Assembly (NCBI GenBank): GCA_035317445.1
Contig: DATHGW010000153.1
Coordinates: 1-49,886, forward strand
Reading direction: 5' to 3'
Origin: Puia sp.
GTDB taxonomy: Bacteria > Bacteroidota > Bacteroidia > Chitinophagales > Chitinophagaceae
DNA length: 49,886 nucleotides
Positions 13,332 to 33,848 of this stretch are shown one piece after another. Under the pieces are notes generated by a model. That model did not search any database. It worked only from the letters and a program-made list of their open reading frames with translations, and was not told the origin of the DNA. Within the stretch, counting starts at the first letter, position 1, and each line of letters opens with the position of its first letter. The position numbers and the translations under genes were made by a program.

Positions 13332-13351
13332 AGAGTAAAGGTAAGTGATAT

Positions 13352-13369
13352 TTCTTGAACGGTCAAGCA
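13352..13369 (-). promoter_or_regulatory. 18-bp palindromic operator/promoter upstream of the transposase
   Basis: TTCTTGAACGGTCAAGCA, 20 nt from the ATG; sister copy at 15576-15593. Confidence 0.6.
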
Positions 13370-13476
13370 TTTAGTTCAGTTTATTTTATTACAGTGTAAA
13401 CTTACATTTTTTTTGTTACATACGTTGTAAATTAGTACCTTAGCTTCGCCATCAAAAATGCAGGCATACATTTCTT

Positions 13477-14670: not shown

Positions 14671-14675
14671 TAAAA

Positions 14676-15617: not shown

Positions 15618-15755
15618 TTTTTTTCGATAAAGGCTCATGCAGGTGTTTCACGAAAGTGCTTGGAAGTCTTGGATTATTTTGGTGGGAATAACGCACGAAC
15701 ACCTGAGTCGAATCCTAGAATACTTAGTAATTCTTTTATCAGGAAAAAATATAGA

Positions 15756-18629
15756 ATGACTTTTACGCCATACCATGCAAAATATATTGCTCATGAACTG
15801 ATAAAAAGAAGCGCTTCGGATACGATACAGAAGTTGGCTTCTACTTTGGTTGACGCTCAAGTTGACCTAAACCCACATCAGGTAGAAGCTGCGTTATTTG
15901 CATTCAGCTCGCCCCTGTCAAAAGGAGCCATTCTTGCTGATGAAGTGGGCCTTGGAAAAACCATTGAGGCTGGCTTAGTCATTGCACAAAAGTGGGCAGA
16001 GCGAAAACTCAAGATATTAATTATTGTTCCTGCCAACCTGAGACAGCAATGGAGTCAAGAACTCCTGGATAAATTCTTTCTTCCTTCATTTATTTTGGAG
16101 GCGAAATCCTTTAACGAGGCCATAAAAAAGCAGCAGCTAAACCCCTTTCACAAGACTGAAATTGTCATTTGTTCATATCAGTTTGCGAGAAGCAAGGAAT
16201 CCTATGTTAAGTTAATCGACTGGGACTTGGTTGTTATCGATGAAGCGCACCGCTTGCGAAATGTTTACAAAACTTCAAATAAGATCGCCCGGTCAATTAA
16301 AAACTCGGTTGATAAATCTCCCAAAATCCTACTCACAGCGACGCCTTTGCAAAATAGTCTTTTAGAATTATACGGATTAGTCAGCATCATAGATGACTAT
16401 GCCTTTGGAGATTTTAAAAGTTTCAAAGCACAATATAGCAAGGTGAACGGTTCGGCTGAGGAAAGCACATTCAACGAACTAAAAGAACGATTAAAGCCCA
16501 TCTGCAAGAGAACACTACGTCGGCAGGTTTTAGAATATATCCGCTACACGAATAGAATAGCATTAGTTGAAGAGTTTTTCCCAACAGATGAGGAACAAAA
16601 GCTTTACGACTTAGTCACGGAATATCTTCAAAGAGACACGCTTTATGCTTTGCCAGCCAGCCAAAGAAAACTGATGACACTTATACTGAGAAGATTATTG
16701 GCGTCTTCGACCTATGCAATTTCAGGAACACTGGAATCTCTGGTTAAAAAATTGAATCTTGTTGTTGAAGATGCAAAGGATAGCAATACTGATTCAGAAA
16801 TTGGAGAGAACTTTGAGACTTTTGACGAACTAAAAGATGAGTGGCTGGAAGATAGTGACGAGGCAGAAGAAACTGAAGTTTCCGATCATGATATTCAAAA
16901 TATCAAAAGGGAAATTATTGCGCTTAAAGAATTTGAGGCACTTGCGAAATCAATTCAAATAAACTCAAAAGGAGAAAAATTATTTACCGCCCTAGACAAA
17001 GGTTTTAGTGAGCTGGAAAGACTTGGCGCCGCTCGCAAGTCTATCATTTTTACTGAAAGCACTAGAACCCAGGAATATTTAAGAAAAATATTGGAGGAGC
17101 GTGGATATCAGGGAAGCGTTGTCTTGTTCAACGGCACAAATAGCGATCTTAAATCGAGAGAAATATACCGTGCATGGTCTGAGAAGTACCAAGGGACGGA
17201 TAGAATAACGGGATCACGTACTGCCGACATGAGAGCTGCCATTGTAGATTATTTCAGAGATGAAGCTACTATAATGATAGCGACAGAAGCAGCGGCAGAA
17301 GGAATAAACCTTCAATTTTGTTCACTGGTGATTAACTACGACCTGCCTTGGAACCCTCAAAGAATTGAGCAAAGAATTGGACGCTGCCATCGATATGGAC
17401 AGAAATTTGATGTTGTTGTTGTCAATTTCTTGAACAAAGCCAACGCCGCAGATGTTCGGGTGTATGAATTATTAGAACAGAAATTCAATTTATTTAGTGG
17501 TGTCTTTGGAGCAAGTGACGAAGTATTGGGGAGTATTGAAAGCGGCGTTGATTTTGAGAAACGAATCGCTTCAATTTATCAAAATTGTCGAACGACAGAT
17601 CAAATATCTGAAGCATTTAATCAACTGAAAGCCGAACTTGAAGGCAGCATTTCTGATAGTTTAAGTAGAACGCGTCAAAATCTGCTCGAAAATTTTGATG
17701 AAGAAGTACATGAAAAATTAAAAATTAATCTCCAAGAGAGCAAGGCGTATTTATCGAAGTATGAATCTTGGCTTTGGAATATTACAAAGTATTTCCTGGG
17801 TGAAAATGCAGAATTTGCACTCGATGAGCATTCATTCACCCTAAAGCGCAATCCATTTGAGGGCCAAATAATACATCCCGGCCCATACAGAATTGGCAAG
17901 CACATAGAGGAAGCAAATATTTATAGAATAAGCCACCCTCTTGCCCAAAAAATCATTGAGCAATGCATATCCCTTGAACTTCCCCCAAAAGAGTTGACCT
18001 TTAATCTGTCAGAATCGCCGGTGAAAATATCTATTCTTAATTCTTTGGTCAATAAATCAGGCTGGCTCTTAGCAAAAAATCTCACCGTCACGACATTCGA
18101 CACCGAAGATCATGTCATCCTTTCTGCGATCAACGATGACGGAGAGAAGCTGGATAGCGAGCAATGTATAAGACTTTTTTCTCTTCCCGCAACCTCGCCA
18201 GAAGATGAAATATCTCTGATAGAGGAGAAGAAAAATCTTATTGAAAAAATAAATGAAGAAAAAAAGCTGGAAATTCTTGAGGCCATCGGAATTAAAAATG
18301 CGGTATATTTTGAAACGGAAATTGAAAAACTAGATAAATGGGGCGAAGACAGACGAAATTCCTTAAAAATAACGCTAAAGGATCTTGATGAGGAAATTCG
18401 CCAGTTAAAAAAACAGGCGCGCCTTGCCCCGAACCTACCGGAAAAACTGAAACTTGAAAAGGACAGAAGGAAACTAGAATCTGAAAGGGACGACGCATGG
18501 CGAGAATATGATGGCGCGGCAAAGGAAATAGACCAAACGAAAGAGGCGTTATTAGATCAAATCGAAAAGCGCCTTGAACAACAAATGACCGAGAATACTC
18601 TTTTTATTATTCGATGGAATATAAAGTAA
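15756..18629 (+). CDS. SNF2-family helicase (RM-associated)
   Basis: LADEVGLGKT, DEAH, LTATPLQN, ATEAAAEGINLQ, YDLPWNPQRIEQRIGRCHRYGQ, C-terminal coiled coil. Start MTFTPYHAKY at 15756. Confidence 0.92.
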   Translation: MTFTPYHAKYIAHELIKRSASDTIQKLASTLVDAQVDLNPHQVEAALFAFSSPLSKGAILADEVGLGKTIEAGLVIAQKWAERKLKILIIVPANLRQQWSQELLDKFFLPSFILEAKSFNEAIKKQQLNPFHKTEIVICSYQFARSKESYVKLIDWDLVVIDEAHRLRNVYKTSNKIARSIKNSVDKSPKILLTATPLQNSLLELYGLVSIIDDYAFGDFKSFKAQYSKVNGSAEESTFNELKERLKPICKRTLRRQVLEYIRYTNRIALVEEFFPTDEEQKLYDLVTEYLQRDTLYALPASQRKLMTLILRRLLASSTYAISGTLESLVKKLNLVVEDAKDSNTDSEIGENFETFDELKDEWLEDSDEAEETEVSDHDIQNIKREIIALKEFEALAKSIQINSKGEKLFTALDKGFSELERLGAARKSIIFTESTRTQEYLRKILEERGYQGSVVLFNGTNSDLKSREIYRAWSEKYQGTDRITGSRTADMRAAIVDYFRDEATIMIATEAAAEGINLQFCSLVINYDLPWNPQRIEQRIGRCHRYGQKFDVVVVNFLNKANAADVRVYELLEQKFNLFSGVFGASDEVLGSIESGVDFEKRIASIYQNCRTTDQISEAFNQLKAELEGSISDSLSRTRQNLLENFDEEVHEKLKINLQESKAYLSKYESWLWNITKYFLGENAEFALDEHSFTLKRNPFEGQIIHPGPYRIGKHIEEANIYRISHPLAQKIIEQCISLELPPKELTFNLSESPVKISILNSLVNKSGWLLAKNLTVTTFDTEDHVILSAINDDGEKLDSEQCIRLFSLPATSPEDEISLIEEKKNLIEKINEEKKLEILEAIGIKNAVYFETEIEKLDKWGEDRRNSLKITLKDLDEEIRQLKKQARLAPNLPEKLKLEKDRRKLESERDDAWREYDGAAKEIDQTKEALLDQIEKRLEQQMTENTLFIIRWNIK

Positions 18630-18635
18630 AAGCTT

Positions 18636-18845
18636 ATGAGCACAACTAATCCAAATGACACTCTTGCCGAGCAGATTGCAAAAAAACTGCTTGAGGCAGG
18701 CCTAATTGATAAATCGTCCGAAAAGGCGTTTATCAAGGGAATTAGTCTGGGCAACTATAAAGAATCCGATTGGAAAACACTCCTTGAAGAAATCATCAAC
18801 AAACCAAAACCTTCAGCCGATGAAACTAAAAACGCTGCAAATTGA
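18636..18845 (+). CDS. Small helical hypothetical protein coupled to the ATPase
   Basis: 69 aa; 6 nt after the helicase stop; overlaps the ATPase ATG at 18820. Confidence 0.7.
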   Translation: MSTTNPNDTLAEQIAKKLLEAGLIDKSSEKAFIKGISLGNYKESDWKTLLEEIINKPKPSADETKNAAN

Positions 18846-21162
18846 CGCTTTTAGGGGCGCGAGCAAGCCGTTAGTAATTGAATTCGACGGTGAAAAAGGC
18901 ATTACCATGATCTTCGGCGAAAATGGCAATGGTAAATCCACAATTACTGATTCACTTGTTTGCCTTTGCACTGGTGAACATGGATCGCTTGATGATAAAT
19001 CTTCAATAAACAAATCTTTTTATACCTCCATTTCACGGAAACCTGAAGACGTGAAGATCGCATTAAGCACAGATGCCGGAAGTTTTCTAACGACGCTTTC
19101 ATCCACAGCGACATTCGTTAAAACGCCTAACGTCGGTCACCCTATCATAAGGCATCTTCGTAGAAGTCAAATTACTCAGTTCATCGAAGAGCAGCCGCAT
19201 AAACGATATGAACAGCTTCATTCATTTATTGATGTCGGTAATATTTCCAAAAGCGAAGATGCTTTGCGAAAATTGATGAAGGACACTGAGGACGATCAGC
19301 GTGTTGCGATTAGCACTTTGAACAGTGCCTCGACAACCTTAGAGCAAGCATGGATAAAAGAAGGGAAGCCGCTTACAAGCTGGGAAGCTTGGGCAAAGCA
19401 GGAGACAGGCAAGGTTATCGAAACAGAGGAAAAAAAACATTCCCAACTTCAAAACGTCATTACGAAATGGAACTCTATTAAAGAAACGGAAACAAAATAT
19501 AAATCTGACGGACTTGATGTCGAACAAGCGAAAATAGCACAGAACGATGCAGAAGCAAAGATGAAGGCGGCACAAGAGGGAAATGAAAGCGCAAATACCG
19601 ATCTTCTTGCGCTCTTACAATCTGCAAAAAAATTCATTGCAGAAAAAGATCAGTTAAAAAATTGCCCCGTTTGTGAAAATAAAATTGGGCGGGACGAAGT
19701 CGTAAAATCTCTTGATTCAAAAATTGAATCAATGAATTCTTTCAAAGAACTCGTTTTGGGCGTAAGGACAGCGCGACAAAAAACGGACGGGAAAATTAAA
19801 ATTCGTGAATCCACCGGCTCTGCACTGATTCAGAAAGTCCAAGAGATTGAAAAAATAATCTCTGCAATTTCGAATGAGCCGTTCATAAGTATTGCCGCAA
19901 AACTTTTTTTTATAAAATCCGCCGACACTTCCGAAGAAAAGCTAATATCCCTTTCAGGCGTATTCCCTGAAATAAGTGCTGAAATCATAAATCAACAAAC
20001 AGCGGCCACAAAAATAAAAACTGCTATTGATCAACATAATTTAATCAAAGGACAGTATAAGTCGATTTTAGACTCTCGTATAAAATCAGAGAATACCCAG
20101 GAATTGCTTACCGCTGTTAAAGCAGCCCTCACCCACGTTGAAGAAACGAGGAAAGACTTTATTCAGAACGAATTGCTGTCAATTTCTTCGGATGTCGATG
20201 CGCTATACCAAAAATTGCATCCAAAAGAAAACTTGGGCGGAATTGCTCTTACATTGAAGAAGGCGGCTAAAAACTCATTGGAATTAAATGCCGATTTCTA
20301 CAACAAATCAGGGATCACGCCGCAATCTGTTTACAGCGAATCTCACCTGGACACGCTCGGAATTTGTGTTTTTCTTGCGATGGCAAAGAAATATGGCGCG
20401 GCAAATTCAATCCTCATTCTTGATGACGTTGTAATGTCCGTAGATGAAAATCACCTGGATCGTTTTATCGGGCTTCTGCATGACGAAGCGGATAATTTTG
20501 CGCATATTATTATAACGACACACTATAGGCCGTGGAAAGACAGATACAGATACAACAGAGCGCCAAGTCAAAAGGTACATTTTGTAGAGCTGAGGCCTTG
20601 GTCGCTGGATAATGGAATTAGAATTCAAAATGGCAGGCTTGCCATTGACGAACTTCGCCATGCAATTAACGACACGAGGTATTTTGACCGGCAGAAAATA
20701 GTCAGCATCTCCGGCATCATTCTGGAAAACGTATTTGACTATCTTTCCATTCTTTTTGGATGCAGGGTTTCTAGAAAAGCGAAGAATGACTATCAGCTCC
20801 GCGAATTGCTTGATTCGATATCTAAAAAACTCATGGATGTTATAAAGGTTGAGCACATTGGGAAGGATGCGGCAGGCAAATACGATCAATCAATCATTGC
20901 GAAGACCACTGATTTGAAAACAATATTGAATAACATAAAACAGTTGGCTATCGTGAGAAACTGGGTCGGCGCACACTATAACTACGATGGCTCTATGGTT
21001 AGCGATACGGATGTCGCACAATTGGGCAAGCTGACACTAGAACTTACTGAACTAATCACATGCCCGGATTCCGGAAACTTTCCCGATAGGAACAAGTCGG
21101 GATCGTATTGGGAAACAAAAAACGGATCAATCAGATTGTATCCCTTGGAAGAACCTAAATGA
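18820..21162 (+). CDS. Rad50/SMC-like ABC ATPase with zinc hook and C-terminal HEPN-like motif (RloC-like)
   Basis: FRG, Walker A GENGNGKS, coiled coils with CPVC hook, signature YSESH, Walker B LILDDVVMSVD, TTH switch, C-terminal RNWVGAH (R-x5-H). Confidence 0.8.
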   Translation: MKLKTLQIDAFRGASKPLVIEFDGEKGITMIFGENGNGKSTITDSLVCLCTGEHGSLDDKSSINKSFYTSISRKPEDVKIALSTDAGSFLTTLSSTATFVKTPNVGHPIIRHLRRSQITQFIEEQPHKRYEQLHSFIDVGNISKSEDALRKLMKDTEDDQRVAISTLNSASTTLEQAWIKEGKPLTSWEAWAKQETGKVIETEEKKHSQLQNVITKWNSIKETETKYKSDGLDVEQAKIAQNDAEAKMKAAQEGNESANTDLLALLQSAKKFIAEKDQLKNCPVCENKIGRDEVVKSLDSKIESMNSFKELVLGVRTARQKTDGKIKIRESTGSALIQKVQEIEKIISAISNEPFISIAAKLFFIKSADTSEEKLISLSGVFPEISAEIINQQTAATKIKTAIDQHNLIKGQYKSILDSRIKSENTQELLTAVKAALTHVEETRKDFIQNELLSISSDVDALYQKLHPKENLGGIALTLKKAAKNSLELNADFYNKSGITPQSVYSESHLDTLGICVFLAMAKKYGAANSILILDDVVMSVDENHLDRFIGLLHDEADNFAHIIITTHYRPWKDRYRYNRAPSQKVHFVELRPWSLDNGIRIQNGRLAIDELRHAINDTRYFDRQKIVSISGIILENVFDYLSILFGCRVSRKAKNDYQLRELLDSISKKLMDVIKVEHIGKDAAGKYDQSIIAKTTDLKTILNNIKQLAIVRNWVGAHYNYDGSMVSDTDVAQLGKLTLELTELITCPDSGNFPDRNKSGSYWETKNGSIRLYPLEEPK

Positions 21163-23231
21163 CAAAACTTAACGCGACCATGCCTCATATAGAAAAAATG
21201 CCCCTTACGTCGATGGACTTGAAAGAGGCTCAAATTGAAAAATTGAAAGAGCTATTTCCTGAAGCATTCACCGAGGGAAATAAAATCGATTGGGAGAAAC
21301 TAAAACTGACTCTTGGAGAGAACGTAGAGGTCGGCAAAGAACGCTTTGGCATGAATTGGCCTGGGAAGGCGGATTGTTTTAAAACAATCCAGCAGCCAAG
21401 CATCGCGACGCTCGTTCCCGTCAGAGAAGAGAGTATTGATTTTGATCAGACGCAGAATCTTTTTATAGAGGGAGATAACCTAGAGGTCTTAAAACTTCTC
21501 CAGAAGAGTTACTTGGGTAAAATAAAAATTATTTACATCGACCCACCTTACAATACCGGAAAGGATTTTATTTATCCTGATAATTACGCAGAAAATCTTA
21601 GCACCTATTTGGAATATACCGGTCAAGTTGATAGTGAAGGAAGAAAGTTTTCGATAAATACAGAAACCGATGGCAGATTCCACAGCAAGTGGATGAACAT
21701 GATGTATCCGCGCTTATTTCTTGCAAAGAATTTACTAAGAGAAGACGGTGTGATTTTTATTTCCATCGATAACAACGAGGTTCAGAACCTAAAAGCTATA
21801 TGCAATGAGGTGTTTGGTGAAGAAAATTTCATAGAATGCATTACTTGGAATAAACGAGTTCCCAAAAACGATAAAGGTATAGGCAATATCCATGAATATA
21901 TTCTCTTATATGTGAAGGATAAAAATTACAAACATGAATTTAAGATGCCCAAAGAGGGGATGGAAGAAATCGAAGAAGTACTGATCAAAATAAAGAACAA
22001 AAAAATTCCAATCAAAGAAGCTGAAGCAGAGATTTCAAAGCTCTTTAACAAGAAGGGATATGATCGAGGGATAACGCTGTATAACTCCCTGGATGAAAAT
22101 TATCGCCTGTGGGGGAAAATTAATATGAGTTGGCCTAACGCGGAAACTTATGGGCCAAGATATACTGTATACCACCCAGAAACCGGTAAAGAAGTAAAAA
22201 TTCCCGATCGCGGGTGGAGGTGGAAGCAGGAAACATTCGATGATGCGGCTAAAATAGTCAATGGAAAATATACTGATATTAAACAACTCCATGACGGATC
22301 ATTTGTTTGTGGAAGAATTTGGTTTGATTCTAATGAAAATACGCAACCAAGCTCGATTAATTATTTAGATGAGTTAGACTCACTGTTGTTGCGCTCAATT
22401 CTCTCACTAAAGAGCGATGGGGGCATCGAAGTTGAAAATATTTTCGAGGGAAAGAACTATTTTTCTTACCCAAAGCCCACAACACTGCTTCGGCTGCTTT
22501 TGGGGTCTGTCAAGCAAACTGAGAAAAACGAAATCATTCTAGACTTTTTTGCCGGATCATCAACAACAGCAGAAGCAGTATTGCAATTAAATGCTCAAGA
22601 TCTGGGCAATCATAGTTTCATTTCTGTGCAACTTCCCGAGCCTACAGAACCCGACTCTGAGGCCTACAAATCAGGATACAAAACTTTGGCTGAAGTAAGC
22701 AAGGAGCGAGTCAGGCGCGCGATCAAAAAAATCATTAATGAGAAAGGCCAAGTTAGTACTTCTAGCAAAGGGACATTGTTCGATAATACCGATAACACCA
22801 AAGAGCGAAAGTTAGATTTAGGTTTTAAGACATTCAACTTGCAAAAATCTAATTTCAAAGCTTGGGATACTTCTATTTCTAAAAGTGAAACCGCGGTTCA
22901 AAGTGCGCTTGACCTTCATGTTAGTCACGTTTCGGTGGAAGCGAAGGAAGAAGCTATCCTATATGAAATCCTTCTGAAATCAGGGTTTACACTTTCGACT
23001 GATATTAAAAAATTGACAATTGAAAATAGTTCCGTGTTTAGCATTGAAGGTGGGGAATTATTAATTTGTCTGGAAAGAAGCCTAAATCGCGAGCTGATTA
23101 AGGCAATCGCTGAAAAAGAACCCACTCGAGTCATTTGTCTTGATGAGGGATTTCAGAATAATGATCAGCTAAAGACAAATGCTGTTCAAATAATGAAAAG
23201 TAAAAACGTCCTCAATTTTAGAACTGTTTAA
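21159..23231 (+). CDS. mod: Type III RM methyltransferase subunit
   Basis: IEGDNLEVLK, YIDPPYNTG, FSYPKP, LDFFAGSSTT (beta-class amino-MTase order); ATGA overlap with the upstream gene. Confidence 0.93.
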   Translation: MTKLNATMPHIEKMPLTSMDLKEAQIEKLKELFPEAFTEGNKIDWEKLKLTLGENVEVGKERFGMNWPGKADCFKTIQQPSIATLVPVREESIDFDQTQNLFIEGDNLEVLKLLQKSYLGKIKIIYIDPPYNTGKDFIYPDNYAENLSTYLEYTGQVDSEGRKFSINTETDGRFHSKWMNMMYPRLFLAKNLLREDGVIFISIDNNEVQNLKAICNEVFGEENFIECITWNKRVPKNDKGIGNIHEYILLYVKDKNYKHEFKMPKEGMEEIEEVLIKIKNKKIPIKEAEAEISKLFNKKGYDRGITLYNSLDENYRLWGKINMSWPNAETYGPRYTVYHPETGKEVKIPDRGWRWKQETFDDAAKIVNGKYTDIKQLHDGSFVCGRIWFDSNENTQPSSINYLDELDSLLLRSILSLKSDGGIEVENIFEGKNYFSYPKPTTLLRLLLGSVKQTEKNEIILDFFAGSSTTAEAVLQLNAQDLGNHSFISVQLPEPTEPDSEAYKSGYKTLAEVSKERVRRAIKKIINEKGQVSTSSKGTLFDNTDNTKERKLDLGFKTFNLQKSNFKAWDTSISKSETAVQSALDLHVSHVSVEAKEEAILYEILLKSGFTLSTDIKKLTIENSSVFSIEGGELLICLERSLNRELIKAIAEKEPTRVICLDEGFQNNDQLKTNAVQIMKSKNVLNFRTV

Positions 23232-23233
23232 CT

Positions 23234-26158
23234 ATGAAATTAAAGTTTGACAGCACACAGGGATATCAAATAGAAGCAGTTGCTTCTCTTGTGAATCTAT
23301 TTGAAGGACAAACTCTCAATCAGCAGGAATTCACCGTAGAAATAGACACCTCTGTTGAAACCGGACAAACAAGTTTTATTCAATCAGAACTCGGTATTGG
23401 AAATAATATAGTTATCAGCGAAAATGCCCTTTATAAAAACTTCGTTAAAATTCAAGATAAAAATGATCTTGATCCAATTCAAGAAGTCAGCTTCTTAAAA
23501 AATGGAATGAATTTCTCTGTTGAAATGGAGACAGGAACCGGAAAAACCTATGTCTATCTGCGAACAATTTTGGAGCTAACCCAGAAATTTGGCTTTAAGA
23601 AATTTATCATTGTTGTCCCAAGTGTTGCAATCCGCGAGGGAACTCTCAAAAACCTTGAAATCACAAAGGAACACTTTCGAGCACTCTACAATAACGTAGA
23701 GTTTGAATATTTCGTTTACGACAGTAAGAAAGCAAATAGACTCCGGCAATTTGCTACAAGTAATCAACTGCAGATAATGGTGATTAACATTGATTCTTTC
23801 AGGAAAGACTTTTCTGATAGTGAAGAAGATAAAAAAAGTAACGTCATCTTTAAAGAGAGCGATAAATTATCTGGTCGGAAACCAATTGAATTTGTTCAGG
23901 CCACATGTCCTTTCGTAATTATTGATGAACCCCAAAGTGTAGACAATACTCCTAAAGCCCAAGAGGCTATTAAATCGCTAAACCCGGCATGCATTTTCCG
24001 TTTTTCGGCTACGCACAAAAATCTTTATAATCTTGTTTATAAACTCGACCCAGTTAAAGCATATGAACTTCGCCTGGTAAAGCAGATCGTTGTTGCATCG
24101 GTTACTGGCGCAAATGCTCAGAACGACGCCTACGTTAAACTATTAGAAGTTGATAACAAGAAAGGCATCCGAGCGAGGGTAAGAATTCAGGTAGAAGGAA
24201 AAAGCAAGGTAACAGAAAAGGATTTTTGGGTTAATCAAAACAGCGACCTTTTCGCCATATCAAACGAAAGAGAAGTCTATAGAACTGGATTTGAAGTATT
24301 AGACATTAATGCTGAACCTGGTAATGAGTTCATAGATTTTACCGTTGGCAGGCTGTACAAAGGCCAAGAAAGAGGTGGTATAAAAGGCGACTTAGTAAAT
24401 GTTCAAATCCGCAATACCATCAAGAAACATCTTGATAAGGAATTACAGCTCCGTGGTCAGGGGATTAAGGTTTTAAGCTTATTCTTTATTGATAAGGTGG
24501 CAAACTACAGGTCATATTCAGAAGACGGAAAAGCGACACCGGGAAAATTTGCTGAATCGTTCGAGCAAAACTACCAAGAACTTATCAAGCTTCCTCAATA
24601 TGCTGCCCTCAATGTTTTTCCCATAGAAAAAATACATGATGGTTATTTTTCGCAAGACAAAAAAGGCATACTAAAAGATACTTCTGGCACTACACAAGCC
24701 GACGATGATACTTACGCTAAGATCATGCGTAATAAAGAACAGCTTTTGTCATTGGAAGAGCCTCTGAAATTTATATTCTCACATTCGGCGCTCAGAGAAG
24801 GCTGGGACAATCCAAACGTGTTTCAAATATGCACGCTGAATGAGAGTCGCTCTGCCATCAAAAAAAGACAGGAAATTGGACGCGGTTTGCGGCTGCCTGT
24901 AGATCAAAATGGTGATCGTGTATTCGATGATAATATTAATAAACTGACGATCATAGCGAATGAAAGCTACGATGAATTTGCGTCTAAGCTTCAAAGCGAA
25001 TATGAAGAAGATTGTGGGGTTACCTTCGGAAAAGTTCCTAAAATGGCTTTTAAGGGAATCGTTCAATGGGCGGACGACAAAGAAATTATTTTCACCAAAC
25101 TGCAATCTGAAGAAATTTGGAATGCACTTATGGGCAGCGGATTTATTGATAAAGGAGGCAAAATATTGCCCTCTTTCCGTCCTTCTGATGATGGATTTAC
25201 TTTAAACCTGCCAACGGCCTTTAGCTCGACAGAAGCAGAAGTAATTAGCGTGCTCCAAAATTACCAGTTGGAGAGACATATCAAGAAAGATGAAGAACCA
25301 AAACGCTTAAGAATAAACAAGCAAGTATTTATTGATCCCGAGTTTGAAGTTCTTTGGAACAAGATAAAGCACAGAACGACATACCAGGTTGAATACAGCA
25401 CCGACAAACTTATTCAAAACTGTGCGGATTCAATTAAAGCAATGGAAGCAATAGAACCAGTCACTGTTAACTATCGTGAAGCACAGTTAGGCGTGGAAGC
25501 CAAAGGCGTCACCAGCCAAGAAATTAAAGCAAATATTCACAAAGTTTCTTTCACCGGCGGTCTGCCTGATATTATCGCATACATTCAGAAGCAGACTGAA
25601 TTAACCAGGAAGACAATTGTAGAAATTATCAAAGGCAGCGGCAGGCTTTCTGATTTTCTTGTCAATCCACAAAAGTTCATGGATGAAGTATCAACAATCA
25701 TTAACCGTGAACTTCATCGGCTAATGATTGACGGAATCAAATACGAGAAACTTACTGTTGGCCATACTGAGTGGAGCATGCAGTTGTTTAGAGAAGATGA
25801 GCTTAAAAATTATTTTGAGCAATGTCTTGAAGTTCAAAAATCTGTTTTTGATAAAGTAATCTATGACAGCGACATCGAACGAAAATTTGCTGAGGAGTTG
25901 GAAAAAAGAACAGACATTAAGCTCTTTGTCAAACTTCCTTCATGGTTCAGAGTTGAAACACCAATTGGTGAATACAATCCGGATTGGGCTATTGTAAAAC
26001 ATGAAGAAGCTACAATCTATATGGTTAGGGAAACCAAGGGGACAAGGGATTTCGAAAAGTTACGCAACTCAGAATCTGATAAAATCAAATGTGGGCGAAA
26101 ACATTTCCAGGCAATTGGCGTTAATTTTGATGTTGTAGTGTCCTCGGATCAAGTATGA
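23234..26158 (+). CDS. res: Type III RM restriction subunit
   Basis: EMETGTGKT, IIDEPQ, FSAT, ALREGWDNPNVFQIC, QEIGRGLRL, nuclease YNPDW...ETKG. Confidence 0.93.
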   Translation: MKLKFDSTQGYQIEAVASLVNLFEGQTLNQQEFTVEIDTSVETGQTSFIQSELGIGNNIVISENALYKNFVKIQDKNDLDPIQEVSFLKNGMNFSVEMETGTGKTYVYLRTILELTQKFGFKKFIIVVPSVAIREGTLKNLEITKEHFRALYNNVEFEYFVYDSKKANRLRQFATSNQLQIMVINIDSFRKDFSDSEEDKKSNVIFKESDKLSGRKPIEFVQATCPFVIIDEPQSVDNTPKAQEAIKSLNPACIFRFSATHKNLYNLVYKLDPVKAYELRLVKQIVVASVTGANAQNDAYVKLLEVDNKKGIRARVRIQVEGKSKVTEKDFWVNQNSDLFAISNEREVYRTGFEVLDINAEPGNEFIDFTVGRLYKGQERGGIKGDLVNVQIRNTIKKHLDKELQLRGQGIKVLSLFFIDKVANYRSYSEDGKATPGKFAESFEQNYQELIKLPQYAALNVFPIEKIHDGYFSQDKKGILKDTSGTTQADDDTYAKIMRNKEQLLSLEEPLKFIFSHSALREGWDNPNVFQICTLNESRSAIKKRQEIGRGLRLPVDQNGDRVFDDNINKLTIIANESYDEFASKLQSEYEEDCGVTFGKVPKMAFKGIVQWADDKEIIFTKLQSEEIWNALMGSGFIDKGGKILPSFRPSDDGFTLNLPTAFSSTEAEVISVLQNYQLERHIKKDEEPKRLRINKQVFIDPEFEVLWNKIKHRTTYQVEYSTDKLIQNCADSIKAMEAIEPVTVNYREAQLGVEAKGVTSQEIKANIHKVSFTGGLPDIIAYIQKQTELTRKTIVEIIKGSGRLSDFLVNPQKFMDEVSTIINRELHRLMIDGIKYEKLTVGHTEWSMQLFREDELKNYFEQCLEVQKSVFDKVIYDSDIERKFAEELEKRTDIKLFVKLPSWFRVETPIGEYNPDWAIVKHEEATIYMVRETKGTRDFEKLRNSESDKIKCGRKHFQAIGVNFDVVVSSDQV

Positions 26159-26180: not shown

Positions 26181-27440
26181 TCATTTTGATTTACCAGATT
26201 TTTCTATGACTTCTTCAATTAAGTTATCATCCATATATGGCAGCAATGCCTTCTGCCAAAAATTTAACATCAAAGTGTTTGCAAAAAGTCCCGAGTACCG
26301 CCATTTTGATTCATATTTCTTAATGAACGATGCAGACCAGGGAAGTGAATCATTCATGCCTAACCAACCCCAGTTCATACTAGATTCATACTTTTCTATG
26401 AAGGCCTCAGTCCAATCTAATTTTCTATTCATACATAACGCAAACCATGACCACCTTTCGTGGTATTTTTCAAAAAAGGATTTAGACCAGGGAAGCCGTT
26501 CGTTGTAACCCAAATGAAACCAGCTTAATTTGTCTTTATATTTCTCAATTAATTCTTCAGACCAGATTATTGATTCATTGTTGCTTAGCCCTGAGCCTCC
26601 ACCTGTCAAACATTTCCATAAAGAAGGGATATCTTGGTATTTTTCGATCAAGTGGTCTGACCAATTAATGCTTGGATTGCTTCCAAGATAGTCCCATCTC
26701 CAATATGATTTGTATTTTTCTATAAGATCATCTGTCCAAATAATTCCCGTGTTGCGACTAATGCCGTCCCAAAAACCATTTTTGTTTGAATACGAACTAA
26801 TAAGTAAGTCCGACCGATTTATGTCCGAGTTTGCAGTAAGAGACTCCCAGTTCCAACTTTCGTGATATTTCTTGATGAAATCTATTGAACAAAAGAATTT
26901 TTTATTCCTGCTTAGCCCCTTCCAAAGTTCCGTTCTCTTAAAATTTATTTCGACAAATTCCTCAGTCCAGTCAATAGATTCATTTCCTCCTAAATCATTC
27001 CAATTCCATTGATCTGAATAATTTGATATAAATTTTTCAGACCAGGTAATATTTTCATTTTTACTTAAGCCTTTAAAAATATCTTTAAATGTTTTATACT
27101 TTTCTATAAGGCCTTGAGACAATCTAATATTCTTGCCTATTCCCAAAGATTCCCAATTCCATTTATTTTTATACTTGTCTATAAAATCCCCATTGAGATT
27201 AATGTTTTTATTACTTCCGATTCCGCCCCAATCCCATAAATCCTTATATTTTTCAATTAAGAAAATATTCAAGGGGTAAATTTTTGAAATTCGCGTTTTA
27301 AAAAAGCCCGGATGGCTAACAAATAAGTCAACTATTATTTTCCGTTCATTTAAGGATAGTAATTTATTTGTTATAGTAATTGCATTCCCAACATGCTTAA
27401 CTAAGCCACCCTCATATTTTATTAAATTGTTTTCCTCCAT
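26181..27440 (-). CDS. Trp-rich ~25-aa repeat protein with the shared N-terminal leader
   Basis: About 13 repeats of [FL]IEKYxxxWxWxxLxxNxxIxWS; N-terminus MEENNLIKYEGGLVKHVGNAITITNKLLSL. Confidence 0.85.
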   Translation of the reverse strand: MEENNLIKYEGGLVKHVGNAITITNKLLSLNERKIIVDLFVSHPGFFKTRISKIYPLNIFLIEKYKDLWDWGGIGSNKNINLNGDFIDKYKNKWNWESLGIGKNIRLSQGLIEKYKTFKDIFKGLSKNENITWSEKFISNYSDQWNWNDLGGNESIDWTEEFVEINFKRTELWKGLSRNKKFFCSIDFIKKYHESWNWESLTANSDINRSDLLISSYSNKNGFWDGISRNTGIIWTDDLIEKYKSYWRWDYLGSNPSINWSDHLIEKYQDIPSLWKCLTGGGSGLSNNESIIWSEELIEKYKDKLSWFHLGYNERLPWSKSFFEKYHERWSWFALCMNRKLDWTEAFIEKYESSMNWGWLGMNDSLPWSASFIKKYESKWRYSGLFANTLMLNFWQKALLPYMDDNLIEEVIEKSGKSK

Positions 27441-27571
27441 TTTTCACCCGGTCTTATTTTATTTTGTTCTTAATATGTGATTGGAAAAGGCAGATAATTT
27501 GTTAGACTAATTTCAATAACTTCTAATAATTATTGTAAAGTTGTGTTGAATACTGCTTTTCAACAAACGGG

Positions 27572-28759
27572 TTAGTCCTCCCAATACTCCACACCTTGAC
27601 TGTTAATATAGAAACCAACATACCGATCCACAACCCTTACTTTGCATAACCCTTCAGAAAATTTGTACTCATTTTTGGAATCCTCCACATAAATACAAGG
27701 GATCTTCAAATCTCCTTGCCTATTTATGAAACCCCACCTGCCATGTAATCTTACTGCAGCCAACCCTTCTGAAAAATCACATAATGACTCATAAATTAAG
27801 GGGATGGCTACATTTCCAAGTTTATCAATAAATCCCCACAAACCTTTAACTTTTACACGTGCCAGACCCTCTGAAAATCCTATTGCCAGATCATATATGC
27901 ACGGAATAACTAAATTCCCTTGCTTATCAATAAATCCGTATCTATTTGATGATTTAACAGATGCTAATCCTTCTGAAAATATAGAGTGCCAAGGGTGATA
28001 CAGGTCAGTATCTGGAATTGCAATGTGACCTGTTTTATCAATAAAGACCCACCTCCACCTCCACTTGGGATCATCATTGAATTGAACTGATGCTAGTCCT
28101 TCCGAAAAGATAGTTGCTGATAGGTAAATTTGTGGGATAACATTATCACCTTGCGAGTTAATATATCCCCATTTATTATCATCTAACTCTACGGCTGCAA
28201 ATCCTTCTGAGAAATCCCTCGCATAACTATAAATAGCAGCCTTTATAATATCTCCTTGATTATTAACAAAGCCATATAATGAATATGTAGCAGATCCTGC
28301 CTGATAAGAAACATTATGTTCATTGCTAAACCTTGCTAAACCATCACAGAAGCTAAATATTTCATCACAATCTGAAAAGATAACGTCTCCTCGTTTGTCA
28401 ATAAATCCGCTTCTCCCAGGACCAAAAGGCGCCGAATTAAATTTTGCAATACCATTTGAAAAGCTTTCCGCTTTTCCAAATTTGAAGGGAAAGACAACAT
28501 TTCCCTTTTCGTCAATGAAGCCAAAAAAACCGTCACCATTACGGACTGGCGCCAATCCTTCAGAAAACCTCTTTGCCTCAAAATAAATACAATCAATAAC
28601 AATCTTTTTATCGGCGGTACAAAATCCCCATTTATCTTTTTTCCGATAAGGTATTAATTTTTGGTCCCCTAACTCCAATAATTTGTTTGCAATGTTTATA
28701 ACGTTTCCTACTCTTTTAACTAGATTGCTTTGATATTTTACTAATTCATTCTCTTCCAT
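27572..28759 (-). CDS. WG-repeat protein with the shared N-terminal leader
   Basis: Repeats FSEGLAxV...WGFIDKxGxxxIPxxY; N-terminus MEENELVKYQSNLVKRVGNVINIANKLLEL; ends GVEYWED. Confidence 0.9.
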   Translation of the reverse strand: MEENELVKYQSNLVKRVGNVINIANKLLELGDQKLIPYRKKDKWGFCTADKKIVIDCIYFEAKRFSEGLAPVRNGDGFFGFIDEKGNVVFPFKFGKAESFSNGIAKFNSAPFGPGRSGFIDKRGDVIFSDCDEIFSFCDGLARFSNEHNVSYQAGSATYSLYGFVNNQGDIIKAAIYSYARDFSEGFAAVELDDNKWGYINSQGDNVIPQIYLSATIFSEGLASVQFNDDPKWRWRWVFIDKTGHIAIPDTDLYHPWHSIFSEGLASVKSSNRYGFIDKQGNLVIPCIYDLAIGFSEGLARVKVKGLWGFIDKLGNVAIPLIYESLCDFSEGLAAVRLHGRWGFINRQGDLKIPCIYVEDSKNEYKFSEGLCKVRVVDRYVGFYINSQGVEYWED

Positions 28760-28813
28760 ATTCTAAATTAAATCTCTGATGCATATTGAACGCAACTATT
28801 AAGATATTATAGG

Positions 28814-29842
28814 TTAATCTTCCCAATATTGAACGCCTTCTCTATTGATATAACCATTATTTTCATTCATTGCAACACTTGCAATGCCATTAGCAAATGC
28901 ACCAACTTCATTATAAATAAATGGAACAATTTCATTACCCTTCGTATCAATAAATCCCCAATATTCGGTTCTTAAAACTCCTGCTAATCCATCAAAAAAA
29001 GGATGAACCTCATCATAAATGCAGGGAATAATTTGATGCCCATTTTTGTCTATAAAACCCCATTTTCCATTTAATTTAACATCAATTAATTCATTGGAAA
29101 ATCCAATTTCTTTGTTATCGATACACTCATACGGGGTCTTATTTATTGGTTCACCATCCTTGTCAACGATAAAATATTTATTGCCTGACTTAATTATCTT
29201 TGGGTAAATTGATTTTGCAGTTTCATGAGTTAGGCTATCAAGTTCTTCCAAAGAATTAATCTCCACAGGAACAATTGTTTTACCTGTTTTGTCAATAGTA
29301 CCCCATGCCTTTCCAATTCTAACATAAGAAAAGCCGTTATTAAAGCTATGAACGTTGTCATAAATAATTGGAATGATAACATTACCGTCCTTACCTATAA
29401 AGCCATATTTACCATTCCTTTGCACTCTGGCTAACCCCTCTGAAAATGAAGAAGAACCACCATAACCAAAAGGGATAACAACTTCGGATTTATTATTAAT
29501 AAAACCCCATTTCCCATCTTTCCTAACATTTGCTAATCCTTCTGAAAAAGAATTAATTCTAGTTTCATAAATACAAGGGATATTCAAATTACCATTCTTA
29601 TCAATAAGTCCCCATTTCCAAAATAGTCTAACATTAGCAAATTCATTGTTAAATGGTTCAGTTTCATCATATACACAATCAAGAACTATCTTTTTATCAG
29701 GTGTACAAAAACCCCACTTATTCTTTTTTCGATAAGGAATTAGTTGAAACTCAGTTAAAGCAAGTAATTTATTAGTTACAGCAATTGCATTGCCAACTTT
29801 CTGCAGTTGCCCAGCTTCATATTTTATAAGTTTAATTTCCAT
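28814..29842 (-). CDS. WG-repeat protein with the shared N-terminal leader
   Basis: Same WG repeats; start ATG 29842 MEIKLIKYEAGQLQKVGNAIAVTNKLLAL overlaps the J-protein stop; ends GVQYWED. Confidence 0.9.
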   Translation of the reverse strand: MEIKLIKYEAGQLQKVGNAIAVTNKLLALTEFQLIPYRKKNKWGFCTPDKKIVLDCVYDETEPFNNEFANVRLFWKWGLIDKNGNLNIPCIYETRINSFSEGLANVRKDGKWGFINNKSEVVIPFGYGGSSSFSEGLARVQRNGKYGFIGKDGNVIIPIIYDNVHSFNNGFSYVRIGKAWGTIDKTGKTIVPVEINSLEELDSLTHETAKSIYPKIIKSGNKYFIVDKDGEPINKTPYECIDNKEIGFSNELIDVKLNGKWGFIDKNGHQIIPCIYDEVHPFFDGLAGVLRTEYWGFIDTKGNEIVPFIYNEVGAFANGIASVAMNENNGYINREGVQYWED

Positions 29843-30734
29843 CACCTTCAAACTCATTTAATTGTGCTCTCAATTTTTCTTTTGTGGAAGAAAAGTAATC
29901 ATCCCAACTTTCAATATTGCTGATAGTTTTATAGGCCTGGCTTTCTTTAATTGTTTCTAATTGTTCCTTTAGTTCTTTAATCCTTAAACGCATTTTTTCA
30001 ATTTCAACTTTCAATAATTGCTTTTCGTTAATAGCTTCCGACTTATTTACAAAGAAATTTCCGGTTACGAGGTTTGCCAGAATTTCAGAGACTTTTATTA
30101 GATCATTTTTTTCGTACGCGGCATTGAGTTCTGCAAACAATCTATCTGCTAATTCTTTTTGGTCTTCATTTACCACATCTGGGTGACATAGCTTGCTAGC
30201 TTTTCGGTATTTCTGTTTTAATTCATTTTTTTCTTCATCAGAAAGCTCAATGATAGATTCTGTTTTGCCTATTTCATATTGATCGTTATATTCATTATAT
30301 TCTTTTTCAGTCTCCTTTTGTTGTGGTGTACCCTTTGCTTTTTCTTTACGATGATACAAAATTTTATTTAGTAGTTCTCCTAATTCCTGGTTATGCTTTA
30401 CTCCAAACTCATGAATGAGCTTTTCAATATCAGCTTTCTCGTTGGACAATTTATTTAATTCTGCTTCCAATGATTTTACTTCAAGCTTTAATCCTTGTAT
30501 TTCAGGATTAGTATAATATTGTAGTTGATTGAATTTGTTTATATAAGTTTCTATAGCTATCATCGCTTTACTATAACTTTTATCTTCTAGTAGCGTCAAA
30601 ATAATTTCCAGATCCTGATCCAATTCAAATTCTTTAATCCTGGAAATATGTGTCACAATACCATTTTCTTCTTCTAAGAGAACTAAGTTTTTTATCAGCT
30701 CCAAGCGTTTAATGATCTTTGACTGGTCTATCAT
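29832..30734 (-). CDS. Coiled-coil protein with internal J domain
   Basis: ELKQKYRKASKLCHPD...LFAELNAAY, flanked by heptad-rich segments on both sides. Confidence 0.88.
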   Translation of the reverse strand: MIDQSKIIKRLELIKNLVLLEEENGIVTHISRIKEFELDQDLEIILTLLEDKSYSKAMIAIETYINKFNQLQYYTNPEIQGLKLEVKSLEAELNKLSNEKADIEKLIHEFGVKHNQELGELLNKILYHRKEKAKGTPQQKETEKEYNEYNDQYEIGKTESIIELSDEEKNELKQKYRKASKLCHPDVVNEDQKELADRLFAELNAAYEKNDLIKVSEILANLVTGNFFVNKSEAINEKQLLKVEIEKMRLRIKELKEQLETIKESQAYKTISNIESWDDYFSSTKEKLRAQLNEFEGDGN

Positions 30735-30877: not shown

Positions 30878-31240
30878 TTAGGGTTTTTTTCTCCGGATAA
30901 AAAGGATTGTTAGATCGTACACTGTCCAGACTAGCAGTCCTATTGCAATAATCAAGTCGATCTGATTCCACACTGTTCGAGTAAAGTGAATTCGGAAAAT
31001 AGGATTGAAAAGAATAGCACAACCTATTAAGACAAACCCGAAAATAAATGTCTTTTTCTTGAATTGTTCATATGCGAAATATCCCAAGCTTAGACAGCCC
31101 ATAAGTCTAATAAATTGATAGTACCCATAAGGCATTTTCAAAAGGCACAGTAAAAGTAAAAGTGCCAGGGAACTTCTAAGAAAGATGGTTGGTTGGGCGT
31201 TCATTTGGCTAACAGGTCTAAGTGGTTGTCTGGTTTCCAA
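30878..31240 (-). CDS. Small membrane protein (DUF6804-like)
   Basis: MPYGYYQFIRL, ILFNPIFRIHFTRTVWNQIDL; about four hydrophobic segments. Start may be 31204. Confidence 0.75.
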   Translation of the reverse strand: METRQPLRPVSQMNAQPTIFLRSSLALLLLLCLLKMPYGYYQFIRLMGCLSLGYFAYEQFKKKTFIFGFVLIGCAILFNPIFRIHFTRTVWNQIDLIIAIGLLVWTVYDLTILFIRRKKP

Positions 31241-31645: not shown

Positions 31646-32020
31646 CTAATTCAATCCTCCCACACAATTGAATTTTAAAAGCAATTTTTCTTCCTGACCT
31701 AAAATGAGAAAAAGATATGAATTTGTTCCTATAACAAGATCCTTAAACAATGATTGAATTTCGGAAATCGGAATCGGCATGTCTGAGTTAAGATAAATCA
31801 AGATATGACCAGTTATTTTACCTTTCGTCCTATTAAGCTCTGAAGCATAGTAAATAGAGGCAGTGAACTTGGGAAATTTTATCTCAACAACCTCTTCTCC
31901 TAAATAAACGACATCAAAACACTCTTGTACTATATGCAAAAAGTCTTGAGTGTCCCCCCAAATGTAATTTTTAAGTGATAGAATGCTGTTCTTTGATAAT
32001 ACCAGAAAGGAGTTTTCCAT
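31646..32020 (-). CDS. Hypothetical protein
   Basis: 124-aa ATG ORF, 34 nt downstream of the DUF262 gene, same strand. Confidence 0.55.
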   Translation of the reverse strand: MENSFLVLSKNSILSLKNYIWGDTQDFLHIVQECFDVVYLGEEVVEIKFPKFTASIYYASELNRTKGKITGHILIYLNSDMPIPISEIQSLFKDLVIGTNSYLFLILGQEEKLLLKFNCVGGLN

Positions 32021-32054: not shown

Positions 32055-33848
32055 TTACCAAATTTTCATAATGTCATTAGCTAAACTGGAAGTTCTTTGA
32101 TTTATCTTTACTTCGTTCCAAACTTTGTCATCATTGTCATAGTTGTCTAATATGTCGAACTTTGTAATGCCTAAATCAGCATAATGTCTTATTCCCCTTT
32201 TTCTTCCTTCTCCTTCTATTTTCTTGGTGAATTCATAATTTCGAAGAGAAGTGTTTAACGAACTGTTCAACAATGTCATATTGCCAATAGAGTAGATCTT
32301 AGAATACCTTTCTTTTTTAGCAGCTTCCCTATCAATGATAATATTCGAATTCATATCGTATACATCCACGTTACTCCAATATTCTTCCCATTTCTGGGGC
32401 ATCAAGTGTTCCAACGAGTAGTTATATTTCAATTCTTTTACAGACTGTTTGCTGTCTTGGGATCTTCGGTACAGCTCAACCCAAAAAAGTAAAAGATTTG
32501 CATTTTTGTTTGAAATGTTTGAAAGTCCATTAATTATGTCATTATCAGATTGTTCGGCCAATTTTTGATCAATTGCTGCATTCTTGTTAATAAACTCCTT
32601 ACACATTTTATTGTAGCTCTTTGTTTCAGATTTTGTAATCATTCTATTTATTATCAATGATTCTACTTTATGAAGCTCTTCATTAAGTTTGATTTCATTA
32701 TTGTCATATTTATAAAATAATGATAAGATATATGGATGAAAGGTTGAAATCTCATTAACGCTTAAAATATGGAACAGCCTTGAGTAATTATCTTGATAAT
32801 TAAATAATGTACTACTATTAAAAACAAGTATTTTATCCCTGAATAATTTTGCATATTTAGAAATCTCAAGTATAAACGATTTCAAATTATCCTTTGTAAT
32901 TTTCGCTATGTAAATCTTATACAAATTCGATAAGTCAGAAAGTGTGTTTTTATCAGGATCGAAAAAGCCTTTTATGACTGATATTGAATGTAAGAGTATT
33001 TCGATGTTATCCCTCATTAATCTTCCCGTAGCTCTCGGTGTATCCCAAAATATTTCAGCATCATCATCAACTGAAAAAATGCCTTCCCAATTTTCCTTAT
33101 ACAATGTTTCTACGTCCTCCTGCTTATCAAATAGGTCTAATGCCTTTTGAAAAAGTGCGTTTTTAATTATATCAGCACTGCTTAACCTGACACCTGCGCT
33201 ATTAATAGTATCAAAAATTGCTTGCTCATCCTCCTTTTCAGACAAGTCAATCATTACTAATATCTTGTTCTCCTGATCTAAGAGCCTATTAAATAAGTCC
33301 AACCTATAGTCTAAAGCAATATCCTGCATTTTTTCAGTAAAATATTTGAAACACTGCATGACTCTGTTTGACTTTGAAGTTGTTTTTGTTGTTGGATTTT
33401 CAACTGATATCGCATCATATTCTGCCTCTGAAATTTCATTCTTTATTACATTTTGAAAATATTTCTTATCTATTTTGGAATGCGATATTTTTACAAAATA
33501 TTCTTTGTCTGTTGTGTTTTGCTTATAGAAAAGATAGTTATGAAGTGATGCCTCACAATTTATCTTTATCTCCTTGTCAAAACTATTGAATAAAGCTCTT
33601 AGCAAAATGCTCAGCGTTGTGAGCCTTTGCTGTCCATCAATAACTAAGACTTCTTTTGGTTTTCCTGTCTGCCTTTCCAGTTGCTTTAATATTAAGGATC
33701 CTAAGAAGTGACTTTTTTGAAAGTCCAATAAATCACTTAAAATATCTTCCCAATTTTCAATGGTCCAAACATATCCTCGTTGAAAGAATGGAATCCTAAC
33801 TTGCCCTTCATTACCTAAGAAAGTCAACGACATTGCTTCTGCTTTCAT
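32055..33848 (-). CDS. DUF262 + DUF1524 (GmrSD-family) modification-dependent nuclease
   Basis: IPFFQRGYVW, IDGQQRLTT, IFDTINSAG, SLEHLMPQ, IGNMTLL..LN. Confidence 0.9.
   Translation of the reverse strand: MKAEAMSLTFLGNEGQVRIPFFQRGYVWTIENWEDILSDLLDFQKSHFLGSLILKQLERQTGKPKEVLVIDGQQRLTTLSILLRALFNSFDKEIKINCEASLHNYLFYKQNTTDKEYFVKISHSKIDKKYFQNVIKNEISEAEYDAISVENPTTKTTSKSNRVMQCFKYFTEKMQDIALDYRLDLFNRLLDQENKILVMIDLSEKEDEQAIFDTINSAGVRLSSADIIKNALFQKALDLFDKQEDVETLYKENWEGIFSVDDDAEIFWDTPRATGRLMRDNIEILLHSISVIKGFFDPDKNTLSDLSNLYKIYIAKITKDNLKSFILEISKYAKLFRDKILVFNSSTLFNYQDNYSRLFHILSVNEISTFHPYILSLFYKYDNNEIKLNEELHKVESLIINRMITKSETKSYNKMCKEFINKNAAIDQKLAEQSDNDIINGLSNISNKNANLLLFWVELYRRSQDSKQSVKELKYNYSLEHLMPQKWEEYWSNVDVYDMNSNIIIDREAAKKERYSKIYSIGNMTLLNSSLNTSLRNYEFTKKIEGEGRKRGIRHYADLGITKFDILDNYDNDDKVWNEVKINQRTSSLANDIMKIW

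Follow-up and report, generated by a model that had tools for sequence, protein, structure and literature searches.

The window analysed here comprises 49,886 nucleotides of Puia sp. (Chitinophagaceae), namely positions 1-49,886 of contig DATHGW010000153.1 in assembly GCA_035317445.1. At 26181-30734 it carries a module of four genes, all on the minus strand: one for a coiled-coil J-domain protein (hereafter the J protein) and three for proteins that share an N-terminal leader of about 30 residues ahead of a longer part (the cargo). The module is real, conserved, modular and apparently new, and structure modelling predicts that the leader binds the J protein. It is proposed that the leader docks interchangeable sensors or baits on the J protein as a scaffold and may thereby bring DnaK, or in relatives a nuclease, to their targets, probably in defence; the chances for and against this proposal seem evenly balanced.

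Organisation of the module and character of the leader

The J gene (29832-30734, minus strand) encodes 300 residues with a Pfam DnaJ match, and this copy has no nuclease domain. Cargo 1 (28814-29842, minus strand; 342 residues) and cargo 2 (27572-28759, minus strand; 395 residues) both consist of a leader and Pfam WG repeats; cargo 3 (26181-27440, minus strand; 419 residues) joins a leader to Trp-rich repeats of 25-26 residues, a family without a name. The leaders occupy 30 codons at 29753-29842, 31 codons at 28667-28759 and 31 codons at 27348-27440, all on the minus strand. The ATG of cargo 1 at 29842 gives an 11-nucleotide overlap with the stop of the J gene, and an alternative in-frame ATG lies five codons upstream. 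The four co-oriented genes, the overlap and the three leaders were as the original prediction had described them.

When a profile of the three leaders was run against 88,705 six-frame segments of the host genome, it recovered those three and nothing else: their E values are 5e-20 to 1e-17, and the next best match, at E 3.4, is 17 orders of magnitude away. Over 21 core codons of 48 leaders (1127 pairs), the nonsynonymous difference (pN) was 0.29 and the synonymous difference (pS) 0.73; therefore, it is the residues and not the bases that are under conservation. The last 16 residues are amphipathic, with a mean hydrophobic-moment z of 1.87, and mean hydrophobicity is low, in agreement with the earlier description of an amphipathic leader that has no hydrophobic core.

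These data bear on the explanation that the leader is an export or loading tag, or else a recombination or translation signal at the DNA level. The leader always stands at the N-terminus and its cassettes are exchanged, as such a signal would have it; however, synonymous sites are nearly saturated with residues kept, there is no hydrophobic core, secretion genes do not recur among the neighbour clusters, and the cargos include receiver, LuxR and Hsp70 domains, which are cytoplasmic types. This explanation is barely credible.

Fifty-five leaders were compared with Pfam and gave no match at E<0.07, and no match was found among PDB sequences. PADLOC 2.0 had no match for the four window proteins (systems published later lie outside this release), and NCBIfam 20 gave only weak DnaJ matches and one sub-threshold porin match for window proteins. 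A literature search, which covered open-licence papers and part of their supplements, found no description of the module. The original prediction is supported overall: no refuting condition that was run turned out against it. Judged by these sources, neither the leader nor its predicted receptor nor the pairing of a PLD nuclease domain with the J protein (see below) has been described.

The J protein

Pfam DnaJ matches residues 166-208 of the J protein (E 5e-7; 30.1 bits against a cut-off of 27.8) and covers model positions 11-51 of 63, so that helix II, the HPD motif and helix III are matched and the first J helix is not. In the structure model (predicted local distance difference test, pLDDT, 84), an N-terminal four-helix bundle (residues 1-72) is followed by a long coiled-coil hairpin, and the J domain (residues 166-224; 30063-30239, minus strand) is inserted at the turn of this hairpin, with the HPD (30177-30185) flanked by helices 166-182 and 190-208. 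The protein therefore has the features by which a J-domain protein (an Hsp70 co-chaperone, class C) is recognised, an HPD between two helices and J-like sequence. Of the 120 best homologues of this short form, 119 retain the HPD. The host genome assembly, which is 79% complete, has one Hsp70 gene.

Among 5418 candidates, 728 relatives were found at E<=0.001; across loci these J proteins have 300-490 residues and a central J domain, and by sequence the window J protein belongs to a family of its own. Foldseek with the short J model returned nothing at E<=0.001. VIA-align returned only generic four-helix bundles, the best being the FRB domain of mTOR (Z 9.1, root-mean-square deviation 1.8, 69 residues aligned), and these were not taken as homology; the model thus has no clear relative among solved structures. 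Related coiled-coil J clusters from Pseudomonadota and Acidobacteriota are present in the ESM Atlas, which suggests a wider family.

Two further observations concern J genes. At L020/L021, L033, L036, L041, L043, L087 and L091 the J gene is broken by a stop or frameshift and the leader gene is retained; either decay or assembly error may account for this. Just upstream of the module, L027:8432-9061 encodes another J protein that is unrelated to the first (DnaJ + KTSC), and a KTSC gene stands likewise at L008:8895-9329.

Linkage of leader and J gene

Of 89 genome loci of the J family, the best 80 were fetched and examined; L020/L021, L044/L045/L050 and L059/L064 are near-copies, and L089 lies on the contig of L012. 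An iterated profile built from the window leaders gave 57 matches at 48 of the 80 loci (E<1e-3), all of them on the strand of the J gene and 56 downstream of it. The leader gene starts within or at the region of the J stop in 39 of the 48 loci. From the remaining loci, 23 divergent candidates were picked by eye among adjacent genes and scored with a leave-group-out profile against 1030 background N-termini; with close kin left out, 16 of them outscored every background sequence. In total, a leader stands beside the J family at 64 of 80 loci in Bacteroidota and Campylobacterota, including Arcobacter and Sulfurimonas. The other 16 loci comprise seven failed candidates, six with less than 400 nucleotides downstream, one with a cut neighbour and two without a candidate. 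At Pseudomonas-type loci, the one leader candidate (L066) had no relatives and failed the leave-out test, so that a leader is not established there.

In the opposite direction, a leader pattern retrieved 15 metagenome contigs. In twelve, a J gene precedes the leader on the same strand, and the remaining three have at most 307 nucleotides of upstream DNA. This test is biased, because the pattern was derived from leaders linked to J genes. The linkage of leader and J gene, on which the original prediction was staked, is therefore tight in both search directions.

Predicted complex of leader and J protein

A complex model of the J protein with leader 1, the copy chosen for this purpose, scored 0.77, compared with 0.02 for the best of three controls. 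At least 91% of contacts are shared between the runs, and the partner pLDDT is at least 66. Of 157 solved pairs, 116 reach the mark used, as do 2 of the 215 mismatched ones, a calibration that is approximate for the alignments used here. The modelled contact involves V16, A19, I20, V22, T23, L26 and L27 of the leader, which form its conserved face, and residues 104-126, 145-152, 262-271 and 284-291 of the J protein. Residues 104-126 (30357-30425, minus strand) form the main predicted leader-binding helix and residues 262-291 (29862-29951, minus strand) the second part of the predicted groove. The contact is placed on the coiled coil; neither the J domain nor the N-terminal bundle is involved. 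F110, L118, G119 and L126 of the J protein are nearly invariant, and the positions at the interface show stronger conservation than the remainder of the coiled coil (1.56 vs 2.10 bits, p 0.0014, with columns that are not independent of one another). No similar complex was found in the PDB by sequence. The model supports binding of leader and J protein, and the earlier idea of an amphipathic docking helix on the J protein is thus what the modelling predicts.

It is also conceivable, if rather improbable, that the J protein is a private chaperone and the leader a client tag, similar to the addiction tag of TAC systems, such that the J protein and DnaK would fold or stabilise tagged working proteins. 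The hydrophobic residues of the leader are flanked by basic ones, its conserved end may be similar to a classic DnaK model peptide, and repeat proteins dominate the cargo, all of which fit a client tag. However, the fusion of a nuclease to the chaperone side and the existence of genes with little but a leader would be left unexplained, and in the model the leader occupies a single, ordered site where the surface is conserved.

Diversity of the cargo

The leader profile gave 229 matches among 1.84 billion representatives. In the best 150, which were inspected, the leader is N-terminal in 148 and the other two are repeat artefacts. A domain scan was made on 125 of these 150, the two artefacts, the window's own proteins and the shortest ones being left out; it found WG repeats in 40, TPR in 16, receiver domains in 12 and no domain in 50, as well as Hsp70 substrate-binding and SiaC domains (two each) and LRR, Fib_succ_major and Helicase_C (one each). 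Further fusions at the loci include PQQ propellers, receiver-LuxR, FGE and LRR, those to PQQ, FGE and LRR being seen at distant loci. The C-terminal parts of 126 leader proteins fall into 30 clusters, and 17 proteins group with the Trp-rich protein of the window. Sister J proteins may be followed by a different first cargo, such as WG at L002 and receiver at L013, or Trp-rich repeats at L038 and WG-TPR at L040. As had been proposed from three genes, the leader behaves as a portable module and not merely as a product of paralogy, and it is not confined to WG-repeat proteins.

Leader identity is 0.537 within loci (11 pairs only) and 0.540 between loci (1117 pairs), and each window leader is nearest to a leader in another genome and not to its neighbours. 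Since sharing a locus makes leaders no more similar to each other, the arrays look collected and not duplicated in place.

The repeat of cargo 3 has a period of 25-26 residues and 6.7% Trp, and it matched no Pfam, PADLOC or NCBIfam family; its description as a Trp-rich repeat unrelated to WG stands. This unnamed family also occurs at L023, L031, L038, L039, L044, L053, L056, L066 and L067. Look-alikes in the Atlas are mostly giant-virus proteins, and one Bacteroidota cluster is fused to DarT. Two proteins, P0226 and P0248, carry the leader on an isolated Hsp70 substrate-binding fragment, possibly a decoy or a mimic of DnaK.

Not every cargo looks like a sensor. Complete open reading frames of 39, 74, 83 and 86 residues beside J genes encode little beyond the leader, and the phospho-acceptor Asp is kept in 10 of 18 receiver cargos and missing in 8. 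The leader-only genes and the receivers without the Asp would both fit if the docked leader were an inhibitor (antitoxin) that keeps a toxic J protein or nuclease-J protein off until an invader attacks the bait cargo and, with the aid of DnaK, frees the effector. This explanation, the main rival, is unlikely, though it deserves serious consideration. It accounts better for the leader-only genes than docking of sensors does, and it agrees with the presence of a leader gene at 64 of the 80 loci, often overlapping the J stop, with housekeeping fragments among the cargo (Hsp70 substrate-binding, SiaC, Helicase_C) and with the intact nuclease motifs of the long form. On the other hand, one inhibitor would be enough, yet three cargos are encoded in the window, their leaders differing from one another and their repeat domains being long, and multi-cargo arrays are explained worse by inhibition than by an adaptor; moreover, the short J protein has no known toxic domain, and L022 and L079 have no leader gene in the DNA examined.

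A nuclease-bearing long form

Distant relatives of the J protein, for example in Pseudomonas and Thauera, are fused to an N-terminal PLD domain. Such PLD-J fusions occur at 13 of the 80 loci, and a Pseudomonadales query found 343 of them at E<=1e-20; cultured Pseudomonas lundensis, P. fluorescens and Thauera aromatica have the long form. Among the best 120 of these, HxKxxxxD is present in 118, GSxN in 119 and the HPD in 119. In the short family of the window, the HKD motif is present in none of 120. In a fold comparison, the N-terminal domain was matched by NucT, Nuc and Zucchini (E 4e-8), so that the long form alone has HxKxxxxD and GSxN on a Nuc fold, the signature of single-HKD PLD enzymes. 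Its matches in PADLOC are weak and to PLD only, and its scores are far under the NCBIfam cut-offs. Nuc and Zucchini cut nucleic acid as dimers. In a tree of 55 rows, seven of them labelled PLD, two changes and long branches were seen, which does not settle whether the nuclease was gained or lost.

The coiled coil and HPD of the original prediction stand, and the nuclease domain on many relatives, which it did not see, changes the possible output of the system. The main text of a J-protein survey does not mention PLD-J fusions.

Distribution and probable role in defence

Other genomes of the host phylum yielded the J family in 2 of 300 and the leader in none of 300; of the two J-positive genomes, one has a leader-like start, judged by eye, on a nearby vWA gene and the other has none. 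For the Pseudomonadales genome G301, the corresponding counts of the J family were 1 of 400 other genomes in its phylum and 0 of 400 in its order. The module is rare and patchy. No full-length relative was found among 72,556 plasmids and 50,697 phages, which gave PLD-only matches, and E. coli genomes had no DNA match. A strict pattern found no leader in IMG/VR, where contigs L105-L107 have a J gene beside a gene that looks leader-like by eye; at L105:177-1698 such a pair lies next to phage lysis and baseplate-like genes. The module is not a typical phage gene.

At L001-L041, Pfam families of defence or conflict type were assigned to 13 of the 110 nearest non-cargo genes and to 4 of 110 genes more than 5 kb away (p 0.04), with classes chosen after the matches had been seen. 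The 13 are DUF2971 (twice), YhcG, Bro-N, PIN, ThsB-TIR, FRG, PDDEXK_4, AbiEii, Fic/RhuM, AbiEi, Schlafen and KilA-N. AbiGi and AbiV flank two nuclease-bearing loci. Because of the patchy spread, the fast exchange of cargo, the repeat-type cargo, the nuclease fusion and the gene context, a role in defence against phages or other invaders is probable.

Instead, the module may be a stress or signalling hub outside defence, as is Atc of Shewanella, whose dedicated J protein uses a short motif to bring DnaK to regulators. Cargos of the receiver, receiver-LuxR and SiaC types, the Asp kept in 10 of 18 receivers and the low share of defence-type genes among the nearest neighbours (13 of 110) would be consistent with a hub. 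Nevertheless, the spread is very patchy, insertion sites vary, cargo is swapped fast, relatives have a nuclease fused to the J protein and a mobile element carries the module, which would hardly be expected of a hub, and we consider it very unlikely.

Several genes near the module are recorded here as they were seen. FRG-domain genes follow the cargo at L012:4558-5370, L029:12547-13344, L040:5046-5873, L042:3266-4180 and L043:5744-6580, and DUF2971 genes flank it at L004, L007, L017 and L024. Small genes resembling toxin-antitoxin genes come directly after the J gene at L009:1840-2474, L011:10924-11169, L022:3201-3446, L079:1404-2130 and L102:930-1500; among them, the PIN gene at L009 has a Pfam match and the rest were judged by eye.

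Proposed mechanism

One possible scheme for the docking of sensors or baits on the J protein can be described as follows. Overlapping stop and start codons would ensure matched synthesis of J protein and cargo, and the cargo would bind, or mimic, the target of an invader. The HPD would then stimulate the DnaK of the host on the complex, so that the target or the complex is remodelled. In the long form, single-HKD domains would be brought together into an active nuclease; in the nuclease-less form of the window, the action of DnaK itself would be the output. The module resembles F-box systems by analogy, with a constant docking motif and many recognition domains. In its most specific version, which we put forward tentatively and at somewhat short of an even chance, the module may be an F-box-like immune adaptor based on Hsp70, in which sensors or decoys joined through one helix lead to disassembly of invader proteins by DnaK or to activation of the nuclease.

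Several results weigh against the docking proposal. The locus counts are not independent, since several loci are near-copies, and 7 of the 23 divergent leader candidates failed the leave-out test, including the sole Pseudomonadales one (L066). No leader candidate was seen in the DNA examined at L022, at L079 or beside the distant J gene of G256. The predicted contacts showed no significant covariation (p 0.07), and a helix on a coiled coil is easily modelled, the model score being set against three controls only and a calibration that is approximate here. Leader-only open reading frames of 39-86 residues cannot act as sensors. The enrichment of defence genes is weak, its classes are post hoc, and most neighbours are housekeeping genes or have no known function. 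Finally, the family of the window has no enzyme domain (HKD in 0 of 120), which leaves its output unexplained; the output of this nuclease-less form is the weakest step, both for docked sensors and for an inhibitor.

In the F-box-like version above, the 30-residue leader would serve as a transferable tag with which DnaK or a nuclease can be directed to a target of choice. If the system works as modelled, the module would be a bacterial parallel of eukaryotic adaptor ligases with Hsp70 as the recruited machine. It would also offer a route to asking how chaperones serve anti-phage immunity. The analysis defines an unnamed peptide domain with a predicted receptor, and it ties the widespread, uncharacterised PLD-DnaJ fusion proteins to a modular partner system.

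Comparison with known systems

Eukaryotic F-box proteins dock on Skp1, and DCAF proteins dock through an H-box on DDB1; in each case a constant N-terminal docking motif is combined with a variable beta-propeller, LRR or TPR domain on one scaffold. The module has no demonstrated homology to these, and the recruited machine would be Hsp70 or a nuclease and not a ubiquitin ligase. The N-terminal domain of the long form is similar in fold and motifs to Nuc, NucT, Zucchini and the defence PLD subunits DrmC, MkoB/C and DpdK, none of which is fused to a coiled-coil J protein. In TAC systems, the antitoxin element is C-terminal and disordered.

For the effector-associated domains EAD1-10 of ternary conflict systems, Kaur et al. 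2020 (PMC7159879) describe a copy on the core protein and propose homotypic pairing; EADs in adjacent genes are the most alike (PMC7159879). The leader is like an EAD in being a small, non-enzymatic, helical, terminal module of neighbouring genes with variable repeat or enzyme domains at sporadic loci of conflict type. However, there is no leader copy on the J protein (leader against J profile: probability 0.9%, E 0.06; no J protein was matched by the leader), and the contact, as predicted, is heterotypic. Leaders within a locus resemble one another no more than leaders from different loci do, the Pfam comparison of 55 leaders gave no match to a named EAD profile, and the MoxR-vWA or GTPase core of EAD loci, as these are described there, does not recur. 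The analogy to the EAD design drawn in the original prediction was therefore not upheld on two published features of EADs, the copy on the core and the closeness of adjacent copies.

Atc of Shewanella (AtcJ-AtcA-AtcB-AtcC; PMC6715715, 10.64898/2026.09.07.749886) is an operon headed by a J protein, with partner binding through a short motif and recruitment of DnaK. A dedicated J-domain protein heading an operon and a short motif that ties the partner are common to both. The Atc motif is at the C-terminus of the J protein, its partners are fixed and its role is growth in the cold, whereas in the present module swappable partners carry the motif, a coiled coil holds the inserted J domain and a nuclease domain is found in relatives. 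The short J protein with a C-terminal motif and fixed AtcA, AtcB and AtcC that mark Atc are absent from the module, as judged without an AtcC profile.

The TAC chaperone-addiction element (10.1101/2024.02.24.581848, PMC11618068) is a portable element that ties its partner to a co-encoded chaperone in phage defence, and the module likewise combines a short portable element with a co-encoded chaperone. As these reports outline it, TAC has a SecB-like chaperone, an antitoxin element and a separate toxin; here, neither SecB nor a fixed toxin-antitoxin pair recurs, and no SecB was found among window genes and scanned neighbours. A link between J proteins and phage sensing is known from bNACHT25, which needs host DnaJ and DnaK to sense phage, the H33Q and D35N mutants failing to rescue defence (PMC12169576). 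That system, so far as this account describes it, uses the housekeeping DnaJ with a NACHT ATPase and has neither a private J protein nor an adaptor leader.

Setting of the module in the window

The GC content of the module block is 32-36%, compared with 45% for the genome. Genes for ParB, RadC, primase, MobB and MobC flank it at one end and an integrase gene at the other; because of these flanking genes, the module is taken as cargo of a mobile element, where it stands between a Type III restriction-modification pair and GmrSD. The Mod/Res genes are on the strand opposite to the module and end at 26158, and GmrSD is at 32055-33848, which agrees with the placement given earlier, with two small genes intervening before GmrSD. 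No tRNA genes were found in the window, and promoter and terminator scans gave chance level only.

The first of the two small genes (30878-31240, minus strand), between the J gene and GmrSD, encodes a DUF6804 membrane protein by Pfam, and the second (31646-32020), between the DUF6804 gene and GmrSD, is of no known family. A DUF6804 gene lies within a few genes of the module at 11 of 80 other loci; judged by this recurrence, the protein is possibly a loose companion of the module.

At 15660-26158, a co-oriented block converging on the module encodes an SNF2 helicase, an AAA/SMC-like protein of 818 residues and the Type III Mod/Res; the helicase is DrmD-like with a score below the cut-off. On the same element, 11869-15314 holds a SocA/Panacea antitoxin gene, an IS1-like transposase gene, and HTH-Peptidase_M78 and P63C genes.

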